From positions 12,723-76,722 of the forward strand of contig CAKPEI010000001.1 of NCBI GenBank assembly GCA_934149365.1: DNA of 64,000 nucleotides, written 5' to 3'. This DNA is from an uncultured Clostridia bacterium. Lineage in GTDB: Bacteria; Bacillota; Clostridia; TANB77; CAG-465. Shown one piece after another: positions 2,418 to 48,464 of the stretch. Position numbers and translations under genes: made by a program. Position 1 is the first letter of the stretch. Every line of letters begins with the position of its first letter. The notes under the pieces are model-generated. The model saw only the letters and a list, made by a program, of their open reading frames with translations, was not told the origin of the DNA and searched no databases.

Positions 2418-4313
2418 ATGAAAACGAAGGTAAAATTAAAAAATGGAATATCACTAATAGTACTAGTGATAACAATAATAGTAATGATAGTATTAGCAGG
2501 AGCAGTGATACTAGCATTAAGCAATAGTGGAATAATAGAAAAAGCAACAAGCTCGGCATTTAAGACGGATGTAAAAACAATAAAAGAAGAATATGAATAC
2601 AAAATGGCAGAGCTAAAGCTAAATGATGAGACATTTGACCAAGCGACATTAAATGCTTCAGATACAACATTAAGTTATAATACAAAAACAGAAGAAGGTG
2701 GAAACCTATACAGTATAGTGCCGACAGCAGAAAAGTATAAAGATGAGTTTGAAGTAAGAGATGGAGTGCTAAGATACAAAGGAGAAAATTACAAAAAGTT
2801 AAATTGGGCAGAAGAAGTAGGAATAACAACAAATAGATATGAAATAGTAGATGGAGTATTATTATCATCAAACGCAAACTTGCTACTAGTGGGAACAGAT
2901 GGTAAGATAAGAATACCAAGTAATGTAGTAAAGATAGGAGAGGGAGCATTTAGTAATGTAGACGGATTAAAAGAAGTAACAATACCTGGCAATGTAAAAG
3001 AAATAGGACAAAACGCATTTTCAAGTAACAAAACATTAGAAAAAGTTGTAATGGAAGATGGTGTTAAAACAATAGGTAAGAGTGCTTTTAATCATTGTGT
3101 TTCACTTAAAAGTGTAACAATGACAGATAGTGTTACTGAACTTGGTAGTTTATCTTTTGACTTTTGTTTTAAGCTTGAAAATATTATATTATCAAATAAT
3201 ATAACTAAAATAACTACTAATTTTGGATATTGTTATGAATTAAAGGAACTAAAATTGCCTAAAAATATAACTGAAATAAAAAGTTCTTTTAAGTATGCAA
3301 ATATTAATAAATTAACAATACCAAAGAGCTTATCAAGCATAGTAGATTGTTTTAGTGAAGTAAATGAAATAACAATAGAAAGTGGCAATAACTATTTTGA
3401 GGTTGATGATGGAATACTTTACACTAAGGGAAAAGGAGAATTAATATATATCACTAAATCTAAAAGAGATGAAACTTCGATAACAATACCTGAAAAGGTT
3501 ATTACCTTGAATGCTAATGCATTTTCAAATAGTAAGTTTGAAGTAATAAACTTACCATCAACACTTACTGAAATAACAGGATATTTTAGTTCTAAAAATT
3601 TAAAAGAAATAAATATTTCAGATAGTAATACAATATATAAAAGTAGTAATGGTTCGCTATATAATAAAAATATGACAGAAACAATAGCAATAATATCAGA
3701 TGAAAAATTGGTTAATGTACCAAATGGTGTTACAACAATAGGTTCAAATTCGATGATATTATGTCAAAATGCTGAGAAAATAGTTTTTCCCGAGAGTGTA
3801 ACTACAATATTAGGAAATGCTGTTGCAGCTAGTACTACAGAAATTGAATTGGGGTCAAAAGTAAGCAACATAAAAGAGCTTCCGTTTGGCGCAAATAATA
3901 TTGTAGAAAAAGTTACTATAAATGCTGGTAATCAAACATATTCAGCAGATAATAACTATATATACAAATTAAATTCATCAAAACAAAAAGAAAAAATAGT
4001 TTATGCAATAACTAAAGAAAAGGAACTAACTGTGCCAGATGGAATTGATGAAATATGTGATTATGCCTTTCATAACAAACAAATTACCAAAGTTATTTTA
4101 CCTAATACATTGAAGAAAATAGGAATAGCTAGTTTTTCAGCATCTCTTTTAGAAAATATAGAAATACCAAGTAGTGTTGACACTATAGGAAGTGATGCAT
4201 TTGCTACTTCTACGTTAAAAGAAATAAAAATAAATAAGAAAAAAGGAAGTATAAGTGGAGCGCCTTGGGGAGCTCCAATAGGGGAAAGAGCAATAACATG
4301 GACTCAAAATTAA
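2418..4313 (+). CDS. secreted/surface protein: non-canonical prepilin-like N-terminus plus BspA-type leucine-rich repeat domain (family A, copy 1)
   Basis: RBS GGAGG. N-terminus MKTKVKLKNG|ISLIVLVITIIVMIVLAGAVILALS. Repeated IP.NV..IG..AF......L..V motifs typical of BspA-like LRR. 631 aa. Confidence 0.8.
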   Translation: MKTKVKLKNGISLIVLVITIIVMIVLAGAVILALSNSGIIEKATSSAFKTDVKTIKEEYEYKMAELKLNDETFDQATLNASDTTLSYNTKTEEGGNLYSIVPTAEKYKDEFEVRDGVLRYKGENYKKLNWAEEVGITTNRYEIVDGVLLSSNANLLLVGTDGKIRIPSNVVKIGEGAFSNVDGLKEVTIPGNVKEIGQNAFSSNKTLEKVVMEDGVKTIGKSAFNHCVSLKSVTMTDSVTELGSLSFDFCFKLENIILSNNITKITTNFGYCYELKELKLPKNITEIKSSFKYANINKLTIPKSLSSIVDCFSEVNEITIESGNNYFEVDDGILYTKGKGELIYITKSKRDETSITIPEKVITLNANAFSNSKFEVINLPSTLTEITGYFSSKNLKEINISDSNTIYKSSNGSLYNKNMTETIAIISDEKLVNVPNGVTTIGSNSMILCQNAEKIVFPESVTTILGNAVAASTTEIELGSKVSNIKELPFGANNIVEKVTINAGNQTYSADNNYIYKLNSSKQKEKIVYAITKEKELTVPDGIDEICDYAFHNKQITKVILPNTLKKIGIASFSASLLENIEIPSSVDTIGSDAFATSTLKEIKINKKKGSISGAPWGAPIGERAITWTQN

Positions 4314-4352: not shown

Positions 4353-4390
4353 TAAATACATAAAAAAACATTACAAGAGGTGAAAATGAA

Positions 4391-4540
<150 letters not shown>

Positions 4541-4546
4541 AAAATA

Positions 4547-4570
4547 CATAGCTAGCTTTTTTGCGTGTTA
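4547..4570 (+). promoter_or_regulatory. conserved ATAGCTAGCTTTTTTGCGTGTTAA element (copy 2)
   Basis: See 2376-2400. Confidence 0.5.
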
Positions 4571-4583
4571 ATGGAGGAAAGTA

Positions 4584-6503
4584 ATGAAGGTAAAATTAAA
4601 AAAAGGAATATCACTAATAGTACTGGTGATAACAATAATAGTGATGATAGTATTAGCAGGAGCAGTGATACTAGCATTAAGTAATAGCGGAATAATAGAA
4701 AAGGCAACAAGTTCAGCATTTAAGACGGATGTAAAAACAATAAAAGAAGAATATGAATATAAAATGGCAGAGCTAAAGTTAAATAATGAAACATTTGACC
4801 AAACAACATTAAATGCGTCAGATACAATGCTAAGTTATAATACAAAAACAGAAGAAGGTGGAAACCTATACAGTATAGTGCCGACAGCAGAAAAGTATAA
4901 AGATGAGTTTGAAGTAAGAGATGGAGTACTAAGATATAAGGGAGAAAATTACAAAAAACTAAATTGGGCAGAAGAAGTAGGAATAACAACAAACAGGTAT
5001 GAAATAGTGGATGGAGTATTGTTATCATCAAACGCAAACTTACTACTAGTAGGAACAGACGGTAAGATAAGAATACCAAGTAATGTAGTAAAAATAGGAG
5101 AAGGAGCATTTAGTAATGTAGATGGATTAAAAGAAGTAACAATACCTGGTAATGTAAAAGAAATAGGGCAAAATGCATTTTCAAGTAACAAAACATTAGA
5201 AAAAGTTGTAATGGAAGAGGGTGTCACAACAATAGGATTAGGAGCTTTTTATAACTGTACTTTGTTGAAATCTGTAAGTATGACAGATAGTGTGGTTACA
5301 TTAAATGAACAATCATTTAATGGGTGTATCTCATTAAGTGATATAAAATTATCAAATAATATAACTGAAATACCGTATAATTTTTCTGGATGTTCTAGTT
5401 TAAATCAATTTAAATTACCGACTAGTGTTAAAAAAATATCAAATATATTATGGAATACTGCTGTAAAAGAAATTTATTTACCTAGTAGTTTGGAAACAAT
5501 AGGCGGAGGATGTTTTAGAGGGACTAGCCTTAGTAAGATAACAGTTGATAAAGATAATATTAATTTTGTGGTTGAGGATGGAATATTGTACGGTTCTGGT
5601 AAAACATCTATTATATATTTGACAGCAGATAAGAAAAAAGAAGAAAGTATTACAATTGCAGAAGGCGTAACAAAATTAGATGGAATAATTTTTGCAGAAA
5701 GTAGTATACAAAATATATCTTTACCGTCGACCTTGACAACAATAGAAAACTACTTTTCATCTGATAATATAAAAAGTATAACAGTAGCAGAAGGCAATAA
5801 GTATTTTGCTAGCAAGGATGGATCTTTGTATAACAAAGATATGACAAAAACAGTAGCAATAATATCAGACGAACAAAAAATTACTATACCAGAGGGAGTT
5901 ACCTCAATAGGTAGTTATTCACTATATTTATGTAAAAATGCTACTGAAGTAGTATTTCCTGAAAGTCTTAAGAGTATGGGGGCTTATTCAATAACACATG
6001 GTAATAAGTTAACTGCAGTAGAGAAAGTGTCTATTGGAGCTAGCGTTAATGATATAGCACATTTAGCTTTATATAATGGGTATAAGCTAAAAGAAGTTAA
6101 TATAAATTCTGCAAATAGAACATATAGTGCAGATGGCAATTTTTTATACAAATTAAATAGTAGTGGTGTTAAACAGGAAATAGTAGAGGCGATTGTTAAT
6201 GAATCAAATGTAACAATACCGGAGGGAATTAAAAAAATAGGAAAATATGCTTTTTATAACAATAAAATTGTAAACATAACATTACCTAGCACGTTAACTG
6301 AAATTAGTGATAGTGCATTTTCATCATGCTATTATTTAAATAATGTGCAAATACCAAGCGGTGTAGATACTATTGGTAGTAATGTTTTTTCAGCTTGTAG
6401 ATCTCTTAAGAGTGTAAAGATAAATAGGAAAAAAGGAAGTATAAGTGGATCTCCATGGGGAATACCAATAGGGGAAAGAGCAATAACATGGGCTGAAAAT
6501 TAA
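4584..6503 (+). CDS. secreted/surface protein: prepilin-like N-terminus plus BspA-type LRR domain (family A, copy 2; tandem paralog of 2418..4313)
   Basis: 639 aa. First ~210 codons nearly identical to copy 1. LRR region diverged. Last ~24 aa conserved (KKGSISG.PWG.PIGERAITW). Confidence 0.8.
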   Translation: MKVKLKKGISLIVLVITIIVMIVLAGAVILALSNSGIIEKATSSAFKTDVKTIKEEYEYKMAELKLNNETFDQTTLNASDTMLSYNTKTEEGGNLYSIVPTAEKYKDEFEVRDGVLRYKGENYKKLNWAEEVGITTNRYEIVDGVLLSSNANLLLVGTDGKIRIPSNVVKIGEGAFSNVDGLKEVTIPGNVKEIGQNAFSSNKTLEKVVMEEGVTTIGLGAFYNCTLLKSVSMTDSVVTLNEQSFNGCISLSDIKLSNNITEIPYNFSGCSSLNQFKLPTSVKKISNILWNTAVKEIYLPSSLETIGGGCFRGTSLSKITVDKDNINFVVEDGILYGSGKTSIIYLTADKKKEESITIAEGVTKLDGIIFAESSIQNISLPSTLTTIENYFSSDNIKSITVAEGNKYFASKDGSLYNKDMTKTVAIISDEQKITIPEGVTSIGSYSLYLCKNATEVVFPESLKSMGAYSITHGNKLTAVEKVSIGASVNDIAHLALYNGYKLKEVNINSANRTYSADGNFLYKLNSSGVKQEIVEAIVNESNVTIPEGIKKIGKYAFYNNKIVNITLPSTLTEISDSAFSSCYYLNNVQIPSGVDTIGSNVFSACRSLKSVKINRKKGSISGSPWGIPIGERAITWAEN

Positions 6504-19435: not shown

Positions 19436-19471
19436 AAGTCAGCTGGAAAATTAATTCCAGCTGATACTTTG
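19436..19471. terminator. bidirectional terminator
   Basis: Hairpin cagctgga-aaattaat-tccagctg with flanking A/T runs. Confidence 0.55.
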
Positions 19472-19472
19472 T

Positions 19473-20177
19473 TTAGGAGATAGCTTTCTCACCGTTTGAG
19501 AAAGGAACAAATTGGTATTCTTCTCTGTACCCAGCGTTTGATAACAGGTCATATATTCCGTCAAAATATTTTACTGTATATGTTCGACCATCATCTGACT
19601 GAATAACAAGTGTACCATTGTTCTGTCCGTAAGTACCTATGAGCTTTTCTGCCTCGCTTGTTATAAAGCAATTGTTAATGTTAGGTTCAATTGTTGTTTC
19701 ATAATAAAAATGCTTTACTTCAATGCCACCGACAGGAATTTCTTTTGCTCTTGTTAAGATTTCTTGAGGAAGCGGTTTTACGTTGCGACTTCTTGCAATT
19801 TTTCTTGCCTTTTCTCTTGTATTATCCCATCTTAACTGTTCACATCTTGCATTAAGATTGCGCCAAGTTTCTCGCATGTTTTTAGGATAATCCCAGTTAG
19901 AAAAAGGAACGAAGATGTTCTTCTGAATAAAACCTTTTGCTTTCAAAATTTCAACGAAATTTTCAACATAAGGTATAACATAGTTTACAAGATCTTCGTC
20001 AACGAAGGTTAAGGTGCCGTTGTTCATGTTGTAAATCATTGCTTCCCGAGTAGGAATTACTGTTGATTCTTTATCCCATTGAGGATATACTGCTATAATC
20101 CCGCATGCAGGAATCTTAAATGCCATTTCTTTGAGCTCTGCAAAGTTTTCCGGTCTGTTTGTTGTTACGTTTGTCAT
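19473..20177 (-). CDS. hypothetical protein (compositionally GC-richer than flanks)
   Basis: 234 aa. RBS AAAGGAG. No recognisable domain. Confidence 0.6.
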   Translation of the reverse strand: MTNVTTNRPENFAELKEMAFKIPACGIIAVYPQWDKESTVIPTREAMIYNMNNGTLTFVDEDLVNYVIPYVENFVEILKAKGFIQKNIFVPFSNWDYPKNMRETWRNLNARCEQLRWDNTREKARKIARSRNVKPLPQEILTRAKEIPVGGIEVKHFYYETTIEPNINNCFITSEAEKLIGTYGQNNGTLVIQSDDGRTYTVKYFDGIYDLLSNAGYREEYQFVPFSNGEKAIS

Positions 20178-20295
20178 AATGAATTCTCCTTTTCTGCCTA
20201 CACATTAAATGTGAGGTCTTTAAAAATATTTTTAATATATAATAACAGGTTGCCCTGATTATTATCTTTCCTGATATATATTAATATAACATCAT

Positions 20296-20340
20296 ATAAA
20301 TATAACATACATTAATTATACCACATTTTACATAAAAAAT
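20296..20340 (-). promoter_or_regulatory. conserved promoter module (minus strand TTGATT-17-TGgTATAAT with TTTACATAAA-type spacer), family copy A
   Basis: Plus strand CATACATTAATTATACCACATTTTACATAAAAAATCAA. Near-identical modules at 23255-23305 and 43432-43475. Confidence 0.5.
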
Positions 20341-20428
20341 CAATTTTGGAAGGCTTTATGGCCCTTGTGAATAAAAGGAATAACCTTTCATATAAATGGT
20401 AATATATCAAAAAAGGAGAATATGTAAT

Positions 20429-22757: not shown

Positions 22758-22792
22758 GTAAAAGGGCAAGAAATTATTATTCTTGCCCTTTT
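22758..22792. terminator. bidirectional terminator
   Basis: Hairpin aagggcaagaa-attattat-tcttgccctt plus T-run. Confidence 0.6.
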
Positions 22793-22797
22793 TCACG

Positions 22798-23214
22798 CTA
22801 CATAGCGTAATAGTAATTACCTTCGTATTCAAATTGATAAGCAGTAGAAAAATCTCTAACGTACCGAATGTCAACTATTTCTTGTGGTGTTGAAATATCG
22901 TCTGCTAATTTTTCTCTACTAAATTCAGGAAAACATATCTTTATAATTTCCTTAAGTGTTGAAGGCCCGCTTCCTGAGTAACCTGCCGTTAAATCCAAGA
23001 AAACAGCAGTGCCATCTTCAAAGAACAGTTTTGCGGGAGCCTCATTATTAATACCTTTCATAACTTCATAGTTTATTGTAATAAGTTTTACTTTATTTGG
23101 ACATATAATTTGTGAAGCTACAAGCCGCTTGAAATTATTGAAAATCGTATCTGTTGATCCCCTAAGATGAATAAAAGTTTTAATGCTTATTGTTTTTAGA
23201 TTTTTGCTTTCCAT
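22798..23214 (-). CDS. hypothetical protein
   Basis: 138 aa. RBS AAGGAG. No recognisable domain. Confidence 0.55.
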   Translation of the reverse strand: MESKNLKTISIKTFIHLRGSTDTIFNNFKRLVASQIICPNKVKLITINYEVMKGINNEAPAKLFFEDGTAVFLDLTAGYSGSGPSTLKEIIKICFPEFSREKLADDISTPQEIVDIRYVRDFSTAYQFEYEGNYYYAM

Positions 23215-23254
23215 GGTTTAAACACTCCTTAAAATAATTATATTTTTAATTTTA

Positions 23255-23305
23255 AAACAAATACCATATATATTTTACCATGTTTATGTAAACAAGTCAA
23301 ATTTT
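23255..23305 (-). promoter_or_regulatory. conserved promoter module (minus strand TTGACT-17-TAAAAT with TGTTTACATAAAC spacer), family copy C
   Basis: Alignable to the 20296-20340 and 43432-43475 modules. Confidence 0.45.
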
Positions 23306-23368
23306 AAGCAAAAGATATATCACTATTTGATAAAATGTGATATAATATGCTAAAAAGGAGAGTAAAAA

Positions 23369-26235: not shown

Positions 26236-27432
26236 ATGAGAACAAAAGTTAAACTAAAAGGCGGAATATCATTAATAGTATTAGTAATAACAATAATAGT
26301 AATGATAATACTAGCCGCAGCAATAATATTATCGCTATCAAACAGTGGAATAATAGGAAAGGCAAATAAAGCAAAGACAGATACAGACATATCAAATGCA
26401 AAAGACTTAGTGGCTATGGCTCATGCAGACTGGATGCTAGATGAGGCAAAGATAAAAGAGAACGATGATACAATAACATCATTTAGTAACTATGCAGAAA
26501 AGAAATTACAAGAAGCAGGATATAAAGTAGGAGCAGGAGAAGGAGCATATACAGTAACAGAAGATGGAGAAGTATATACAGGTCTAACAGAAACAGCAAG
26601 AGCAGGAATAACAGCAGGAATAAAAATAGGAGATGAAGTAAAGTATAATGCAGTACTAACAGCAAAAAGAACTACAACAGACGGAAGTGAACAAAGTTCA
26701 ACAGGAGCAGCAGATATTACGAAGAAACAAACAGTAAAAACAAATACAAGCTATACATGGAAATATATAGGATTAGGAGAAGATGGAAGTTTACTTATAG
26801 CGCCAGATATGACAGGGACAATAGGAGCAGACTATAAATTAATATTAGGATATAAAGGAGGTTATATAAATGGACCAAAAATGTTAAATACAATATGTGA
26901 TATTTTATATACAGTAGAGGGAAAAGGAAAAGCTCAAAGTATGAATATAGACATAGTAAACAAAATATTAGAATATAATGGACCAAAAGGAAGATACTAT
27001 GATGCAAGTAGTAATACAGTAGAAACAACAGAAGCAATGACAATAGCAGAATTGGAAACAAAATTTAATAGTAAATTAGCAAGAGATTATGTGCCAGAGG
27101 GGAAAGATTTAGGAGAATATAAATCAGACTATTATTACATAAACAAAACATACCATGCAAGCAGAATAACCAAAGATACAGTGAAACAAAATCTAGTATA
27201 TCAAGCAAATACATATTGGCTTGCTTCTCCGTGTGTCGATGCGAATTTGGACATCGGTTATGCGAGTTTCCATGTACGCTGCGTTAACTCTACTAGCGTG
27301 GACGCGACCAACATGTTCAATCCGTATGTCTCCGATAGTAGCTTTCCCTGCGCTGTCCGTCCGTATGTTTCTCTAACATCTAATGTCCAGAAAACAACAG
27401 AAAATGGAAAAACAGTATGGACATTAAGCTAG
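26236..27432 (+). CDS. secreted/surface protein: prepilin-like N-terminus plus C-terminal YWLASPCV domain with candidate variable region (family B, copy 1)
   Basis: RBS AAGGGGG. N-terminus MRTKVKLKGG|ISLIVLVITIIVMIILAAAIILSLS. 398 aa. Confidence 0.8.
   Translation: MRTKVKLKGGISLIVLVITIIVMIILAAAIILSLSNSGIIGKANKAKTDTDISNAKDLVAMAHADWMLDEAKIKENDDTITSFSNYAEKKLQEAGYKVGAGEGAYTVTEDGEVYTGLTETARAGITAGIKIGDEVKYNAVLTAKRTTTDGSEQSSTGAADITKKQTVKTNTSYTWKYIGLGEDGSLLIAPDMTGTIGADYKLILGYKGGYINGPKMLNTICDILYTVEGKGKAQSMNIDIVNKILEYNGPKGRYYDASSNTVETTEAMTIAELETKFNSKLARDYVPEGKDLGEYKSDYYYINKTYHASRITKDTVKQNLVYQANTYWLASPCVDANLDIGYASFHVRCVNSTSVDATNMFNPYVSDSSFPCAVRPYVSLTSNVQKTTENGKTVWTLS
27239..27372 (+). other. candidate DGR-type variable region (GC-rich, NNC-codon-rich 3' segment)
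   Basis: Composition shift (gcg, ccg, cgc, gac, gtc codons) in an otherwise AT-rich gene. Differences from paralogs fall at first/second codon positions. Confidence 0.45.
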
Positions 27433-37483: not shown

Positions 37484-37523
37484 AAAAACGTAGGAAAGAA
37501 AAATAACAAAGGAGTGAAAACAA

Positions 37524-37595
<72 letters not shown>

Positions 37596-37675
37596 TATCT
37601 AGAAATAAACTAGATAGAGGTTTTTACGCGCAAAAGACATATTATTAGATAATATAAAGTTAGTTATACAGTAAA

Positions 37676-37699
37676 TGTATAGCTAGCTTTTTTGCATTT
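37676..37699 (+). promoter_or_regulatory. conserved TGTATAGCTAGCTTTTTTGCATTTAA element (copy 4)
   Basis: See 2376-2400. Confidence 0.5.
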
Positions 37700-37772
37700 A
37701 AAGCAAGGTATAATCATTGCATTAAGCAATGTTAATATACAAATTAAGTTTTATATGAAATGGGAGGTAAAA

Positions 37773-38942
37773 ATGATGAAAAACTTAAGAAAAAACAAAA
37801 GCGGAATATCACTGATAGTATTAGTAATAACAATAATAGTAATGATAATACTAGCAGCCGCAATAATACTATCACTATCAAATAGTGGAATAATATCAAA
37901 AGCAAACAAAGCCAAAACAGATAGTGATACAGCAAATTTAAAAGAGTATGTAAATACACTAAGAGCAGAATGGGAGTTAATGACAGCAGAAAAACAGGCA
38001 GAAGAAGGTTCATTTGTAGATTATGCAAATTCAAAGTTAGCTGAGAAAGGTTATAAAGTAATGCTATCAGATGACGGAGTACTAATGAATGAAGCAGCGA
38101 CAGCTGCAGTAAAAGCAGGAATAAAAGTAGGAGATACAGTAACAGGGTATACATTGGATGTGGCTACATATACAACAGACGGAAGTGAGAATACATGTGA
38201 TGCAAAAAAACAAGAAGAAACAGATCCACAACCACAAGAAGTAACAGCAAATACGCAGCTAAGATGGAAATACTTAGGAGTAAATGCAAATGGAGAACTA
38301 GAAATAATGGCAGATTTAGGAACAACAGAAGTTGCAGCAAATACAAAAGTAACATTAGGCGGAAAAGGTGGTTATTTAAAAGGACCAGATATGTTAAATA
38401 CAATATGTGAAAAATTATATTCAAAAGATGGAGTAGGAACAGCAAGAAATATGAATATAGATGATGTAAATAATATATTGGGTTATATAGGAGAAAAGGG
38501 ATCATATTACTATATTGATGACGAGTACACACCAACTAAAGAAGCAAAAACAATAGCTACGTTAGAAAGCGAATTAGGAATGACATTAGATGGTAGAACA
38601 ACACCAGATGGAAAAGACTTAGGAATGTACTATTTAGATTATTACAATATAAGTAGAACAGATGATGTAAAAAAGATGAAAAAACCAGGGAATGTGGATT
38701 TAGTATACAATGCTAAAAATGAATACTGGCTTGCTTCTCCGTGTGTCTCTGCAATGTTCTTCGGCAACATGGCGACTTTCAGTGTTCGCTATGTTAACTC
38801 TGCTGCTGTGGGCGGGAACGGCGTGTTTAGTTCGTATGACTACTTTGCCGGCCATACTTATGCGGTCCGCCCTGTAGTAACTTTAAATTCTAATGTTAAA
38901 TTAACACCAAATGCAGATAAAACAGAGTGGGGAATAAGTTAG
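37773..38942 (+). CDS. secreted/surface protein: prepilin-like N-terminus plus YWLASPCV C-terminal domain with candidate variable region (family B, copy 2)
   Basis: ATG 37773 after RBS GGGAGG. The ORF-track start 37692 runs through the RBS. N-terminus MMKNLRKNKSG|ISLIVLVITIIVMIILAAAIILSLS. Confidence 0.8.
   Translation: MMKNLRKNKSGISLIVLVITIIVMIILAAAIILSLSNSGIISKANKAKTDSDTANLKEYVNTLRAEWELMTAEKQAEEGSFVDYANSKLAEKGYKVMLSDDGVLMNEAATAAVKAGIKVGDTVTGYTLDVATYTTDGSENTCDAKKQEETDPQPQEVTANTQLRWKYLGVNANGELEIMADLGTTEVAANTKVTLGGKGGYLKGPDMLNTICEKLYSKDGVGTARNMNIDDVNNILGYIGEKGSYYYIDDEYTPTKEAKTIATLESELGMTLDGRTTPDGKDLGMYYLDYYNISRTDDVKKMKKPGNVDLVYNAKNEYWLASPCVSAMFFGNMATFSVRYVNSAAVGGNGVFSSYDYFAGHTYAVRPVVTLNSNVKLTPNADKTEWGIS
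38748..38880 (+). other. candidate DGR-type variable region
   Basis: 16 of ~41 codons are NNC. GC-rich patch. Confidence 0.45.
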
Positions 38943-42831: not shown

Positions 42832-42837
42832 CATAAA

Positions 42838-42876
42838 GAATGCTTCCCTTTATTACAAGGGAAGCATTTTTTAGAT
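42838..42876. terminator. bidirectional terminator
   Basis: Hairpin aatgcttccctt-tatt-acaagggaagcatt plus T6. Confidence 0.6.
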
Positions 42877-43395
42877 TTTACTTAAGTGCTGCATTTCATT
42901 TAAGAACTTGGTAAGGTTGTTTAAATCTTCCATAAGAGAGGTGCATAAAGCGTAGTAGCTTGCTTCATCAAACGTATCCAAGTTGATTTGCTTGGGTGGA
43001 AAATCTTCTTTTTTGAGAGATTCTTCAAGTACTTCCTCCACACGCGAGATAGATTTGGGGTAGTGTGAAAATTCAGCGTTCATCACATAAATCGTATCAA
43101 GCATTGCAAAAGGTTTCTCACCAAATGACTTCATGTACAAGTTCGGTGCCTTGACATATAGCGCAAGTTTTACACGAGCCATTTCCTTTTTGAATGTCGC
43201 CGGGTTTAAATCTTTGCTGTAAATGTCGACATCAGTAAGACTCTGCAAATATTCCTTGTCAGATGCTATAAAGCCGCTTATTTCTTCTTTCATAACAAGC
43301 TCCATTTCATGGTTTAATCTTTCAAGTTCAATCCGCTTTTCTTCTTCTCTCAATAACTCCTTAGCTCTTTTTCTGTTCTTAAGTAGATAAAACAT
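42871..43395 (-). CDS. hypothetical protein (GC-richer module)
   Basis: 174 aa. RBS GGAGG 8 nt upstream. Confidence 0.6.
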   Translation of the reverse strand: MFYLLKNRKRAKELLREEEKRIELERLNHEMELVMKEEISGFIASDKEYLQSLTDVDIYSKDLNPATFKKEMARVKLALYVKAPNLYMKSFGEKPFAMLDTIYVMNAEFSHYPKSISRVEEVLEESLKKEDFPPKQINLDTFDEASYYALCTSLMEDLNNLTKFLNEMQHLSKI

Positions 43396-43431: not shown

Positions 43432-43475
43432 AATAAATCATACATTAATTATACCACATTATGTAAACAAAATCA
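43432..43475 (-). promoter_or_regulatory. conserved promoter module (minus strand TTGATT-17-TGgTATAAT, spacer TTGTTTACATAA), family copy B
   Basis: Plus strand CATACATTAATTATACCACATTATGTAAACAAAATCAA. Confidence 0.5.
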
Positions 43476-43630
43476 AACAAACTTGCATCTAGAGTATAGT
43501 ATATTGATTGAATATAACTCTTATGATATTATATAGGCATGAGATTAGAGCAAAATATAATTAAAAAACTCTTTTATTTTACAAAAATATGTAATATAAT
43601 AAGAGTAGTAATTTATTGGAGGAATATTAT

Positions 43631-46019: not shown

Positions 46020-47792
46020 ATGGAAAATATCAAACATACAGACAAAAGTTCTAAAATTTTTGCTGTAGTTTTATCAGTAGCCGTAGTACTAGTAGCAGCG
46101 ATTGTGCTAGGTATTATAGGAATGAACAGCTTAAATGGTAAAGTTGAAACTACTGAACAGCACGCATTAAAATCAGTAGCAAACGATGAAGAAAATGTGA
46201 AAACTTTAGGTAGCATTCAAAAAGAAATTGACGTTGTTAAAACAGAAGTAAATGAGGTTAAAGCTAAAGCTGATGAAAATATATTATCATCAGAAGAAAA
46301 CCTAACTGAAATAAACAATGTTAAAGAAAAAATAGTTAGTATCAAAAATGATATAAATAGTGTAGTAGCAAAAGAAGCAACTGTAAAAGAAAAAGCAGAT
46401 GAACTTCTAGATACATTAAATAAAATGGAAGAAAAATTATATGCTACAATAGAAACACTAAAAACTGAAGCAAAAGCATATATAGATACTACAAAAAATG
46501 AAATAAATACAAATACAGATACAAAAGTATTGGCTGCACAAACTGCTATAAATACAAATGTAGATGAAAAATACGTTTTATTAAATACTAGAATAGCAGA
46601 TGCAGAAGCTGCAATAAACGCAAATACAGATGCAAAAATATCAGCAGCGCAAACAGCAATAAACGCAAATACAGATGCAAAAGTATCAGCAGCGCAAACA
46701 GCAATAAATGGAAATACTGATGCAAAAATATCAGCAGCGCAAACAGCAATAAATGCAAACACAGATGCAAAAGTATCAGCAGCCCAAACTGCAATAAATG
46801 GAAATACAGACGCAAAAATATCAGCAGCGCAAACAGCAATAAATGGAAATACAGATGCAAAAGTATCAGCAGCCCAAACTGCAATAAATGGAAATACTGA
46901 TGCAAAAATATCAGCAGCGCAAACTGCAATAAATGGAAATACTGATGCAAAAGTATCAGCAGCACAAACAGCAATAAATGCAAATACTGATGCAAAAGTA
47001 TCAGCAGCCCAAACTGCAATAAATGGAAATACTGATGCAAAAATATCAGCAGCACAAACAGCAATAAACGGAAACACTGATGCTAAATTAGCTGCAAGCT
47101 TTACAGATTTAAAAACTGATTTAAATACTGAATTTTCAAAAATATCAGATAGATTTGATGATGTGGACACTGCTTTATTTAATTTAAAATCTGACGTAAC
47201 TTCATTGCTAACAGCTAATACAACTGTAGGAACTAAATTAACTTCTATAGAAACAAAAGTTACTTCAATAGAAGGAAGTGTCTTAGGTATAAACACAACA
47301 CTTGCTGGAATAAATACGAGCATAACAGGAGTTAATACAACACTTACTGGAATAAATACAAATATAACAGGAGTTAATACATCCCTTATTGGTATTACAA
47401 GTAGTTTAACCGGTGTAACTACTACACTTACTGGAGTAGATGGTAAGTTAGATACAGCTAATTCAAACGTATCAGCAATAAACACAACAGTAACAGGTAT
47501 AAACAGTAATGTATCAATAGCTTTAACAGAAATTTCTGAATTAAAAAATAAAGTTGCAAATATAGGAAGTGGAATGACTGGTATAAGCTCAAAAATTGGA
47601 ACAGCTGCAGATACTAGTGCTAGCACAACATTATTTGGAAAAATGGCAGGTATAGTAAATGATGTATCTGGAATAAATGCTAAACTATCTACAATGGATG
47701 GTAAATTAGATAGCATAATGACTAATACTAACTGGCTTGGAACTTTAACAGATGCTCAAATAAACAAATTAAAAACAATATTGAATAGTTAA
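46020..47792 (+). CDS. membrane-anchored repetitive coiled-coil protein with ~14 tandem 13-aa repeats (SAAQTAINGNTDAKI/V) and a second T-G-I/V-N-T-S/T repeat region
   Basis: RBS GGAGG. N-terminal transmembrane segment. 39-nt periodic DNA from ~46600 to ~47100. Confidence 0.75.
   Translation: MENIKHTDKSSKIFAVVLSVAVVLVAAIVLGIIGMNSLNGKVETTEQHALKSVANDEENVKTLGSIQKEIDVVKTEVNEVKAKADENILSSEENLTEINNVKEKIVSIKNDINSVVAKEATVKEKADELLDTLNKMEEKLYATIETLKTEAKAYIDTTKNEINTNTDTKVLAAQTAINTNVDEKYVLLNTRIADAEAAINANTDAKISAAQTAINANTDAKVSAAQTAINGNTDAKISAAQTAINANTDAKVSAAQTAINGNTDAKISAAQTAINGNTDAKVSAAQTAINGNTDAKISAAQTAINGNTDAKVSAAQTAINANTDAKVSAAQTAINGNTDAKISAAQTAINGNTDAKLAASFTDLKTDLNTEFSKISDRFDDVDTALFNLKSDVTSLLTANTTVGTKLTSIETKVTSIEGSVLGINTTLAGINTSITGVNTTLTGINTNITGVNTSLIGITSSLTGVTTTLTGVDGKLDTANSNVSAINTTVTGINSNVSIALTEISELKNKVANIGSGMTGISSKIGTAADTSASTTLFGKMAGIVNDVSGINAKLSTMDGKLDSIMTNTNWLGTLTDAQINKLKTILNS
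46600..47100 (+). repeat. 39-bp tandem coding repeat array (~13 units)
   Basis: gcaaatacagatgcaaaa(a/g)tatcagcagc(g/c)caaac(a/t)gcaataaa(c/t)g units read directly. Confidence 0.85.
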
Positions 47793-47807
47793 TTTATGTA
47801 AATAGTA

Positions 47808-47842: not shown

Positions 47843-47975
47843 CTATGTAACACCGTTATATTATTTACATAAAAGTTGAAAAAACAATATATATGTGATA
47901 TAATAAAACAGAATTTTAAAGTTGTTAAAACTTAAATAAGGGATAATGAAAAAATAACATAAGGAGGACTGTGGT

Positions 47976-48464
47976 ATGATTGGCTCTTTTACTGAAAAAC
48001 ACCGGGAGATTTCTGATTATTCAATGTATAGGAAAAAACTGTTTGAGGTGTGCAGAATTATTCACCAAGATTACAGCTTGTTAGAGCGCGAATTTTGTAT
48101 TTTAGAAAGATTTATCGTTTCAACTGAAAAATGCGAAGTTGCGTACAGAGCAGAGGATAGGAGAATGATTTTTTGGCACATGAAAGATGTTGACTGGCTT
48201 GACGATATCACGGTGCTGAAAATAGTAGTAGAGAAGCTTGAAGAATGTTTTGTTGGGGCTAAAGAAGAACTCTTTTGCGGGATTGACTTTTTTAATTTCT
48301 TAAATGAACTTTCAGAAAAAGACGGAAAAATAAGTGAAGTTGAATATATCTGGAAAGCTAAGAAAGTCATAAATTCTATTGAAGTTCAATTCGGGAAGAT
48401 TGCTTCAACCGATGATTCGATGAAGCAGATTGCTATTTTAAAGGGAATGCTAGCATTAATCTAA
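47976..48464 (+). CDS. hypothetical protein (GC-richer)
   Basis: 162 aa. RBS AAGGAGG. Confidence 0.6.
   Translation: MIGSFTEKHREISDYSMYRKKLFEVCRIIHQDYSLLEREFCILERFIVSTEKCEVAYRAEDRRMIFWHMKDVDWLDDITVLKIVVEKLEECFVGAKEELFCGIDFFNFLNELSEKDGKISEVEYIWKAKKVINSIEVQFGKIASTDDSMKQIAILKGMLALI

Follow-up and report, generated by a model that had tools for sequence, protein, structure and literature searches.

A sigma-A-like promoter with a conserved spacer motif recurs in front of single orphan genes of uncultured gut Clostridia

Introduction

Human and animal guts commonly harbor uncultured low-GC Clostridia, in which much of the gene content has no known function. The DNA analyzed here, called the window throughout, is a stretch of 64,000 nucleotides (nt) with 30.0% GC from such a bacterium of the human gut (contig CAKPEI010000001.1), which is present in Hadza and other metagenomes. 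A first-pass annotation had drawn attention to an element of about 35 bp upstream of three minus-strand genes and had proposed either a regulator that recognizes the spacer of this promoter and controls recently acquired cargo, or the boundary of a mobile cassette. We describe here the three promoter copies, their recurrence in other genomes, the genes that they precede and the evolutionary behavior of the units that they head.

Results

Three copies of one promoter in the window

The genes and promoters concerned are the following (aa, amino acids; GC3, GC content at third codon positions).

19473..20177, minus strand: gene 1, 234 aa, GC 36.2%, GC3 0.30
22798..23214, minus strand: gene 2, an orphan of 138 aa, GC 32.4%, GC3 0.24
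42871..43395, minus strand: gene 3, 174 aa, GC 36.8%, GC3 0.41
20315..20343, minus strand: promoter A, TTGATT-TTTTATGTAAAATGTGG-TATAAT, with -35 at 20343-20338, a 17-nt spacer, TGG, and -10 at 20320-20315
20328..20335: spacer core of promoter A, TTACATAA on the plus strand and TTATGTAA in promoter sense (Type I orientation, offset 2)
23272..23300, minus strand: promoter B, TTGACT-TGTTTACATAAACATGG-TAAAAT, with TGG, a 17-nt spacer and the core TTACATAA in sense at 23284-23291 (offset 3)
43448..43476, minus strand: promoter C, TTGATT-TTGTTTACATAATGTGG-TATAAT, with TGG, a 17-nt spacer and the core TTACATAA in sense at 43459-43466 (offset 4)

The window (128 kb, both strands) contains exactly three matches to the frame TTGAYT-N14-TGGTAWAAT, all on the minus strand and all at the three genes for which the element had been reported; 100 dinucleotide shuffles contain none. 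Each copy has the properties of a sigma-A promoter: the -35 hexamers fit TTGACA at four to five of six positions, the spacer lies within 17 +/- 1 bp and the -10 is near TATAAT. The bases directly before the -10 (TGTGG in A, CATGG in B, TGTGG in C) agree with the TRTG -16 motif, and the distance from promoter to ribosome-binding site or ATG, 46-131 nt, is compatible with a start 6-9 nt past the -10. Only 3 of the ~40 genes in the window carry the element upstream, which bears out the earlier description of a sigma-70-type promoter with extended -10 that is not generic. Two other readings of the same letters were discarded. On the plus strand, CATACATTA looks like a sigma-E/K -10, but a suitably spaced -35 is missing and B lacks CATACATTA; a DnaA box in TTATACCACA fits at 6/9 positions only, and this likeness is a by-product of TGTGGTATAAT.

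The likeness between the copies extends into the spacer. The 9-mer TTTACATAA or its reverse complement is present in the spacers of A, B and C; taken alone it is not significantly enriched window-wide (7 observed vs 3.98 expected), and three of its seven copies lie inside the three 14-nt spacers. That the core of A reads opposite to those of B and C, as noticed earlier, is correct, and what seemed an inversion is an imperfect palindrome in its second orientation. This palindrome, TTAYRTAA, is identical to its reverse complement. The core of an A orthologue is TTACGTAA, and this core and those of A, B and C all fit TTAYRTAA. A and C furthermore share an exact 22-mer, CATACATTAATTATACCACATT (20306-20327 and 43439-43460; 0 expected), that spans from the -16 region to ~9 nt past the -10. 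Counted from the -35, A and C are identical at ~38/50 positions (76%), and B is more distant. A promoter 34/35 identical to A from -35 to +6 also occurs in a metagenome-assembled genome (MAG) of an uncultured Clostridium sp. with 26% GC (locus L079, 2594-2640), where it drives an unrelated 114-aa GC3-rich gene.

Recurrence of the promoter in gut Clostridia

The pattern TTGAYT N{2,4} TTAYRTAA N{2,4} TGGTAWAAT, with spacers of 15-19 nt allowed, was scanned across 185,579 species-representative genomes. At least 118 loci match, almost all in uncultured low-GC gut Clostridia such as Scatovivens, Coproplasma and CAG:465. The spacer is 17 nt long in 106/119 matches listed (~90%); because this length dominates though 15-19 nt were allowed, the matches are promoters and not chance strings. 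All clade-wide statistics on the spacer motif and on downstream genes given below, solid in themselves, concern the loci listed and rest on loci selected by the scan pattern itself. Two forms of the archetype recur: TTGACT-TTTTATGTAAAWTRTGG-TATAAT, with the core at offset 2, and TTGATT-(W)2-4-TTTACATAA-WR-TGG-TATAAT, with the core at offset 3-4. Both place a single G:C pair at spacer position 7-8.

The center of the palindrome is not free to vary. Among the listed low-GC promoters it is TG in 38, CA in 38, CG in 3 and TA in 15 (84% CA/TG/CG), while elsewhere in these loci TTATATAA, with a TA center, and non-TA versions stand at 160:81 (34% non-TA; binomial p < 1e-12). The core is also found in promoters that did not trigger the scan, in 5/36 TTGAYT-N17-TAWAAT sites (~0.2 in shuffles) and 7/44 TG-extended sites (~0.1 in shuffles), as against 1/59 TTGACA/TTGAAA sites (~0.2 in shuffles). 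In intergenic DNA outside promoter frames it is not enriched, with 0.246 copies per kb vs 0.210 for permuted palindromes; ~10 of the 42 remaining copies stand in a relaxed form of this frame, and a few listed loci have the core immediately downstream of the -10. Since the core is nearly confined to one frame and is under selection there, we regard it as an integral part of one promoter architecture. The spacer is likewise kept in orthologous promoters, namely in four lineages of gene 1, in the gene 3 relative and in a divergent allele of gene 2.

These data bear on the simplest explanation, that A, B and C are just three near-consensus strong promoters of an AT-rich genome, alike through the consensus hexamers and TRTG only. 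The sigma-A consensus does account for 17/29 positions, and the C. acetobutylicum thl promoter carries a similar GTGGGTATAATTAAGTTGT. The TGTA past the -10, considered as a class-specific third element at +5, had to be given up, for control promoters carry it too (6-8.5% vs 18%). However, the same 9-mer sits in all three spacers, at a chance of ~4e-4 per spacer, the core is enriched in the TTGAYT and TG-extended sites over shuffles (~0.1-0.5) and its center is biased. We therefore consider mere consensus likeness very improbable.

A second explanation is a regulon, in which a conserved dimeric DNA-binding protein binds the palindrome TTACGTAA in the spacer, tolerates one weak half-site and co-represses or co-activates the accessory units. 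This would fit the equal use of both orientations (TG 38, CA 38), the rare perfect palindromes (CG) and the disfavored double-weak TTATATAA, which is not tied to GC3-rich genes. In deep orthologues the spacer is as conserved as the hexamers, the site is dyad-symmetric, and copies of the core just downstream of the -10, upstream of GC3-rich genes outside the scanned frame and around the promoter of gene 4 (see below) point the same way. Yet the core outside the frame is no commoner than permuted palindromes, and its offset is tied to its orientation, TG lying mostly at 2 and CA at 3-4, a dependence not obviously expected of a purely symmetric reader. None of the listed targets was recognized as an autoregulated transcription factor, and a literature search gave no known operator that matches the motif. 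Partial look-alikes, TTGATTTTTTATGT...TATAATTAATGTAT, are found between the genes of a Bacillus mycoides plasmid and an Enterococcus phage and rather indicate a general Firmicute promoter habit. We regard the regulon as a possible but less likely explanation. Of the regulator proposed in the first-pass annotation, the selected core survives; a protein that reads it was not identified, and the motif is almost confined to one frame.

Gene 4, which had been described as similarly GC-rich and lacking the element, is GC3-rich indeed, and its upstream region contains the 9-mer outside the spacer.

47976..48464, plus strand: gene 4, 162 aa, GC3 0.36
47864..47904, plus strand: promoter region of gene 4, in which TTTACATAA (47864-47872) abuts the -35 TTGAAA (47876), followed by a 17-nt spacer and TGA-TATAAT (47896-47904)

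An inverted copy of TTTACATAA at 47794-47802 lies 70 nt further upstream, so that the pair brackets the preceding terminator. Both copies are part of a perfect 12-nt inverted repeat, TTTATGTAAATA (47792-47803) and TATTTACATAAA (47862-47873), around the terminator of the gene at 46020-47792 and directly upstream of the promoter of gene 4.

Genes behind the promoter

Genes 1-3 are unrelated to one another, and each has a ribosome-binding site. The mean gene GC in the window is 30.7% (standard deviation 3.3), so that the three are GC-richer as reported, even if the range of 36-40% given for them holds for genes 1 and 3 and not for gene 2. GC3 is the sharper signal for genes 1-4: a typical value in the window is ~0.17, and the per-gene codon statistics that had been suggested as a check place all four above it. 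Both G and C are raised at third positions, and highly expressed genes of the window are not GC3-rich. Pfam and NCBIfam gave no match for the proteins of genes 1, 2, 3 and 4. An AlphaFold2 model of the gene 1 product has a pLDDT of 95.7, and a fold search of the PDB returned no match. The ratio of nonsynonymous to synonymous substitution (dN/dS) is 0.06-0.22, which implies constraint at the protein level. Several other readings of these genes were discarded. A structured RNA in place of protein genes disagrees with this ratio and no Rfam model fits; the same ratio speaks against accelerated protein evolution; with codon bias taken into account, gene 3 has but a modest excess of synonymous divergence; and head-on orientation is a poor cause of fast evolution, since the three window genes are head-on but only 21-38% of listed targets oppose both neighbors. 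The raised GC3 possibly stems from import from genomes richer in GC, from biased gene conversion at exchanged loci or from selection on the mRNA.

The same association is seen across the clade. With GC3-rich defined as a GC3 of at least 1.6 times the locus median, in the low-GC loci among the matches listed, 38% of downstream genes qualify vs 7% of other genes (Mann-Whitney p = 9e-12). The association depends on the spacer as follows.

Core center CA/TG/CG (n=58): 50% of downstream genes GC3-rich
TTATATAA only: 0/7
TTGAYT without core: 1/19
TG-extended without core: 31%
TTGACA/TTGAAA class: 18%

Among genes without the scanned frame, the core lies upstream of 6/28 GC3-rich and 16/278 normal genes (p = 0.009); two control motifs showed no such difference. 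The targets appear monocistronic in 46/48 cases. The 31 GC3-rich target proteins are mutually unrelated except for two pairs, one of which includes a 26%-identical homologue of gene 1, again behind an archetype promoter. Pfam, PADLOC and PHROG gave almost no matches among these 31. A defense or phage origin of the cargo was therefore set aside; there is no PADLOC or PHROG signal, and 2.9 million viral contigs gave 15 matches. Ordinary genes occur among the targets with normal GC3, including a class I tRNA synthetase, an EngA-type GTPase, gatC, veg, Ham1, a sigma factor and RelA/SpoT-type synthetases, and most small normal-GC3 targets are domain-less. A P-type ATPase gene likewise has an archetype promoter. 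The archetype is strongly enriched for orphan genes and not exclusive to them.

Units conserved from promoter to terminator

At their 3' ends, open reading frames 1-3 each stop at a hairpin with T-tracts on both strands that is common to the gene and its convergent plus-strand neighbor.

19438..19465: bidirectional terminator of gene 1, common to gene 1 and a convergent GNAT gene, 100% identical in four lineages
22760..22793: bidirectional terminator of gene 2, AAAAGGGCAAGAAATTATTATTCTTGCCCTTTTT, common to gene 2 and the MGDG synthase gene, sequence read directly
42834..42873: bidirectional terminator of gene 3, common to gene 3 and the phosphoglucomutase (PGM) gene
20178..20314, minus strand: initial transcribed region of gene 1, TAATGTATG, and 5' untranslated region of ~130 nt, with conserved hairpins CAGG-GCAA-CCTG and CCTCAC..GTGTAGG just before the ribosome-binding site

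Bidirectional terminators, earlier assigned to two of the genes, hence close all three units, whereas no convincing terminator was found on the promoter side of any of them. The genes around are housekeeping chromosomal ones (AlaX-like, HIT, DAGK, M19 peptidase, MGDG synthase, MtaB and PGM).

Units from promoter to terminator behave as evolutionary blocks. Relatives of gene 1 have 54-59% identity, and distant ones 32-40%, including those in Saccharibacteria and Nomurabacteria MAGs. One 56% relative is syntenic with the window, flanked by M19 peptidase and GNAT genes, and two others sit between an Smr and a radical-SAM gene. Across four lineages with 56-59% protein identity, the alignable DNA begins at the -35, covers the spacer TTTTTAYGTAAAWTRTGR, the -10 and a leader of ~140 nt, resumes after the coding sequence in the 100% identical terminator hairpin and stops at the T-tract. 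Genes 2 and 3 were each found only in their own species and one relative in a word-indexed search; a full HMMER pass over 1.84 billion representative proteins gave a gene 3 family of 8 members. A gene 3 relative with 81.6% identity overall reaches 90% or more between promoter and ribosome-binding site, and its DNA upstream of the -35 cannot be aligned. Gene 2 offers a comparison within the species. A second contig (L013) is 97.2% identical over 20 kb and ~79% identical across gene 2 and its promoter (22798-23310); the divergent block coincides precisely with the unit, beginning at the terminator and reaching ~10 nt beyond the -35 on its upstream side, with core and -35 identical inside. This allele, 79% identical within 98% flanks, has a synonymous divergence (dS) of 0.86 vs 0.04-0.07 in the flanks and a dN/dS of 0.16, values that indicate a constrained gene with an imported or long maintained allele and not a hypermutating one. 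The same two contigs differ in several other patches of 200-600 nt at 92-94% identity, which suggest a recombination mosaic.

The leader and terminator of gene 1 deserve mention for their own sake. Conservation of the terminator ATCAGCTGGAATTAATTTTCCAGCTGAC (19438-19465; L007, L009, L010) far exceeds that of the coding sequence. A long conserved 5' leader is always present in the family (window 20178-20312; L007 862-1004; L009 1738-1880; L010 1172-1314), and the clostridial version of ~140 nt has three predicted hairpins, one of which, CCUCAC..GUGGAGG, lies just 5' of the ribosome-binding site and, adjoining it, could compete with this site. Rfam matched only tRNAs and the L10 leader in the window and nothing in related leaders, which makes the gene 1 leader a candidate new cis-regulatory RNA. 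In Saccharibacteria the homologues carry another leader, GC-rich and ~175 nt long, that is kept in two MAGs (L158/L161, ~2325-2500).

Block behavior invites the explanation by a mobile cassette, in which the promoter marks the 5' end of a portable unit of promoter, leader, gene and terminator, or is itself copied before unrelated genes. The gene 1 unit is found in two contexts with two lineages each and with homology exactly from -35 to terminator, the gene 2 unit is replaced as a block within the species, and A and C have their exact 22-mer in common. Atypical GC3 and scarce relatives fit accessory genes, and gene 1 has distant homologues in Saccharibacteria and Nomurabacteria. However, the analysis revealed neither flanking direct or inverted repeats nor a nearby recombinase, an empty site or any transposition machinery. 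A scan of JGI metagenomes with the MGDG synthase for empty sites gave nothing, no listed locus of the genome scan is syntenic with A, B or C, and eight strains of the species do not differ at gene 3. The 76% likeness of A and C over 50 nt stays under the 80% over 50-100 nt required of mobile promoters (PMC3488235), viral contigs hardly contribute, and differing contexts at 56-59% protein identity can come from ordinary rearrangement while selection keeps the unit intact. Ordinary rearrangement, homologous recombination and selection on the functional unit explain the block behavior of genes 1 and 2 as well as cassette exchange does, and we judge a mobile cassette rather unlikely. The proposed cassette boundary is borne out insofar as promoter and terminator delimit a block, and it fails on active mobility. 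Recent acquisition of the cargo could not be demonstrated; genes 2 and 3 have almost no relatives anywhere.

A special form of the cassette explanation is that the units are bounded by Xer sites, as pdif modules are, with the core TTATGTAAAC being like the XerD arm of a Firmicute dif. A Xer site has two 11-bp inverted arms around a center of 6-8 bp. On the plus strand B and C read TTATGTAAACA, which resembles the XerD arm of the B. subtilis dif, ACTTCCTAGAATATATATTATGTAAACT (PMC4845504). A second, XerC-type arm is absent 6-8 nt to either side, positions upstream of the -35 are uninformative and no copy lies at the cassette 3' ends. Lacking the two-arm architecture that defines such a site, the core was rejected as a Xer/dif half-site, and we find this origin scarcely credible.

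Discussion

A proposed promoter archetype that frames accessory genes

The first-pass observation is confirmed, and its interpretation is borne out in part. The explanation that we favor, and hold to be somewhat better than an even guess, is a sigma-A promoter archetype, spread across the clade, which frames autonomous cassettes of accessory genes and whose spacer is a functional, sequence-specific element. The housekeeping sigma-A would read the element of ~35 bp as the core promoter of three autonomous single-gene units, made up of a -35 TTGAYT, a 17-bp spacer, the Gram-positive -16 motif TRTGG and a -10 TAWAAT. Transcription would start ~7 nt past the -10, inside TAATGTA, cross one gene and end at the bidirectional intrinsic terminator common to the unit and its convergent neighbor. 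The quasi-palindromic spacer motif TTTAYRTAAA sets one G:C pair at ~-23/-22, in either orientation. The archetype preferentially frames monocistronic accessory or orphan genes with raised GC3, and the unit is conserved and exchanged as a block. As reader of the spacer, a symmetric dimeric DNA-binding protein, acting as a repressor at a fixed position, and RNA polymerase or DNA shape itself appear about equally plausible.

The data show the promoter anatomy, its recurrence in the clade, the selection on the spacer center, the tie to GC3-rich domain-less genes and the block behavior. Several points weigh against this explanation. The sigma-A dependence, the start sites and the strong expression are predictions from the DNA sequence. 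Ordinary genes among the targets mean that the archetype is not specific to orphan genes, and the cause of the raised GC3 is unexplained, with almost no relatives of genes 2 and 3 able to serve as donors. The 22-mer of A and C could be convergence on the archetype, given that the L079 promoter heads a different gene. Per-genome frequencies and the limits of the clade are uncertain because the loci, at least 118 of them listed, were chosen by pattern. The orientation-dependent offset of the core counts in particular against a purely symmetric reader. Gene 1 homologues of Saccharibacteria have promoters of the form TTGACT-TTTT...-TGGTATAAT without the core.

Relation to known systems

The archetype resembles sigma-A promoters with an extended -10/-16 (TRTGnTATAAT; B. 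subtilis veg, clostridial thl/fdx) in its TTGAYT, 17-bp spacer, TRTGG, TAWAAT and TGTA-like start region, and one listed member drives a veg homologue. Unlike the described sigma-A consensus, its spacer has a selected TTTAYRTAAA with one G:C pair at -23/-22, and unlike described promoters of this type it is linked to GC3-rich, domain-less single genes. What is new is thus the selected spacer element on a housekeeping promoter, tied to orphan single-gene units across many gut Clostridia; the sigma-A type as such is known. Repressors that bind in the spacer of sigma-70 promoters offer a parallel, with a palindrome between -35 and -10 that is kept in orthologues and used in both orientations. The archetype motif differs in being nearly limited to one frame with an orientation-dependent offset, and a binder of it is hypothetical.

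Phage morons are autonomous units of promoter, gene and terminator with deviant composition that are inserted between genes. The window units are alike in having their own promoter, one gene, a terminator and a composition unlike that of the unrelated genes between which they lie, but these neighbors are chromosomal housekeeping genes and not a prophage, and there are few matches in viral contigs and none in PHROG. Integron cassettes consist of a promoterless open reading frame and an attC site and lie next to an integrase. This comparison was dismissed, since the window units have their own promoter, finish in terminator hairpins unrelated to one another and have no integrase in their vicinity. 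Putative mobile promoters have been defined as upstream blocks of 50-100 nt with at least 80% identity before non-homologous genes (Matus-Garcia, Nijveen, van Passel 2012, PMC3488235). The archetype is alike in that similar upstream sequence stands before non-homologous genes, within a genome and across genera; its block of similarity, ~35-45 nt, is below the length in that definition, and the likeness may be functional convergence and not copying.

A promoter signature of monocistronic, compositionally deviant, domain-less genes in more than 100 species is a practical way to find accessory and orphan genes and to ask about their co-regulation. If a protein or RNA polymerase reads the spacer motif, it would be a new sequence-specific element of Firmicute promoters, and the archetype could supply portable strong or regulated promoters for clostridial genetics. 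The block behavior from promoter to terminator bears on how new genes stay expressed and are exchanged without classical mobile elements. A further-reaching scheme, which we put forward as speculation and think doubtful, is a dedicated control system of accessory genes across the clade: a dimeric protein would read TTTAYRTAAA in the spacer of a standardized promoter, and promoter, leader and terminator would package compositionally deviant orphan genes into exchangeable, commonly regulated single-gene cassettes. If true, there would be a chromosomal, promoter-defined cassette pool under common regulation.

Other features of the window

Other repeats were also noted. A leader of ~220 nt, repeated at 2194-2414, 4363-4583 and 37496-37714, precedes the paralogous genes 2418-4313, 4584-6503 and 37755-38942; it includes the conserved hairpin TAGCTAGCTTTTTTGCG and ~30 nt of perfect (CA)n. 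Dispersed paralogues of ~395 aa, with 63-96% nucleotide identity in parts, lie at 26236-27432, 37755-38942 and 53765-54901; two of them have similar upstream leaders, and the first is annotated without Pfam in a relative. The gene at 46020-47792, whose terminator lies within the inverted repeat upstream of gene 4, encodes a product of 590 aa with an N-terminal membrane anchor and contains at least 11 tandem 45-nt repeats (46495-47186), which correspond to AAQTAINxNTDAK(I/V)S units.

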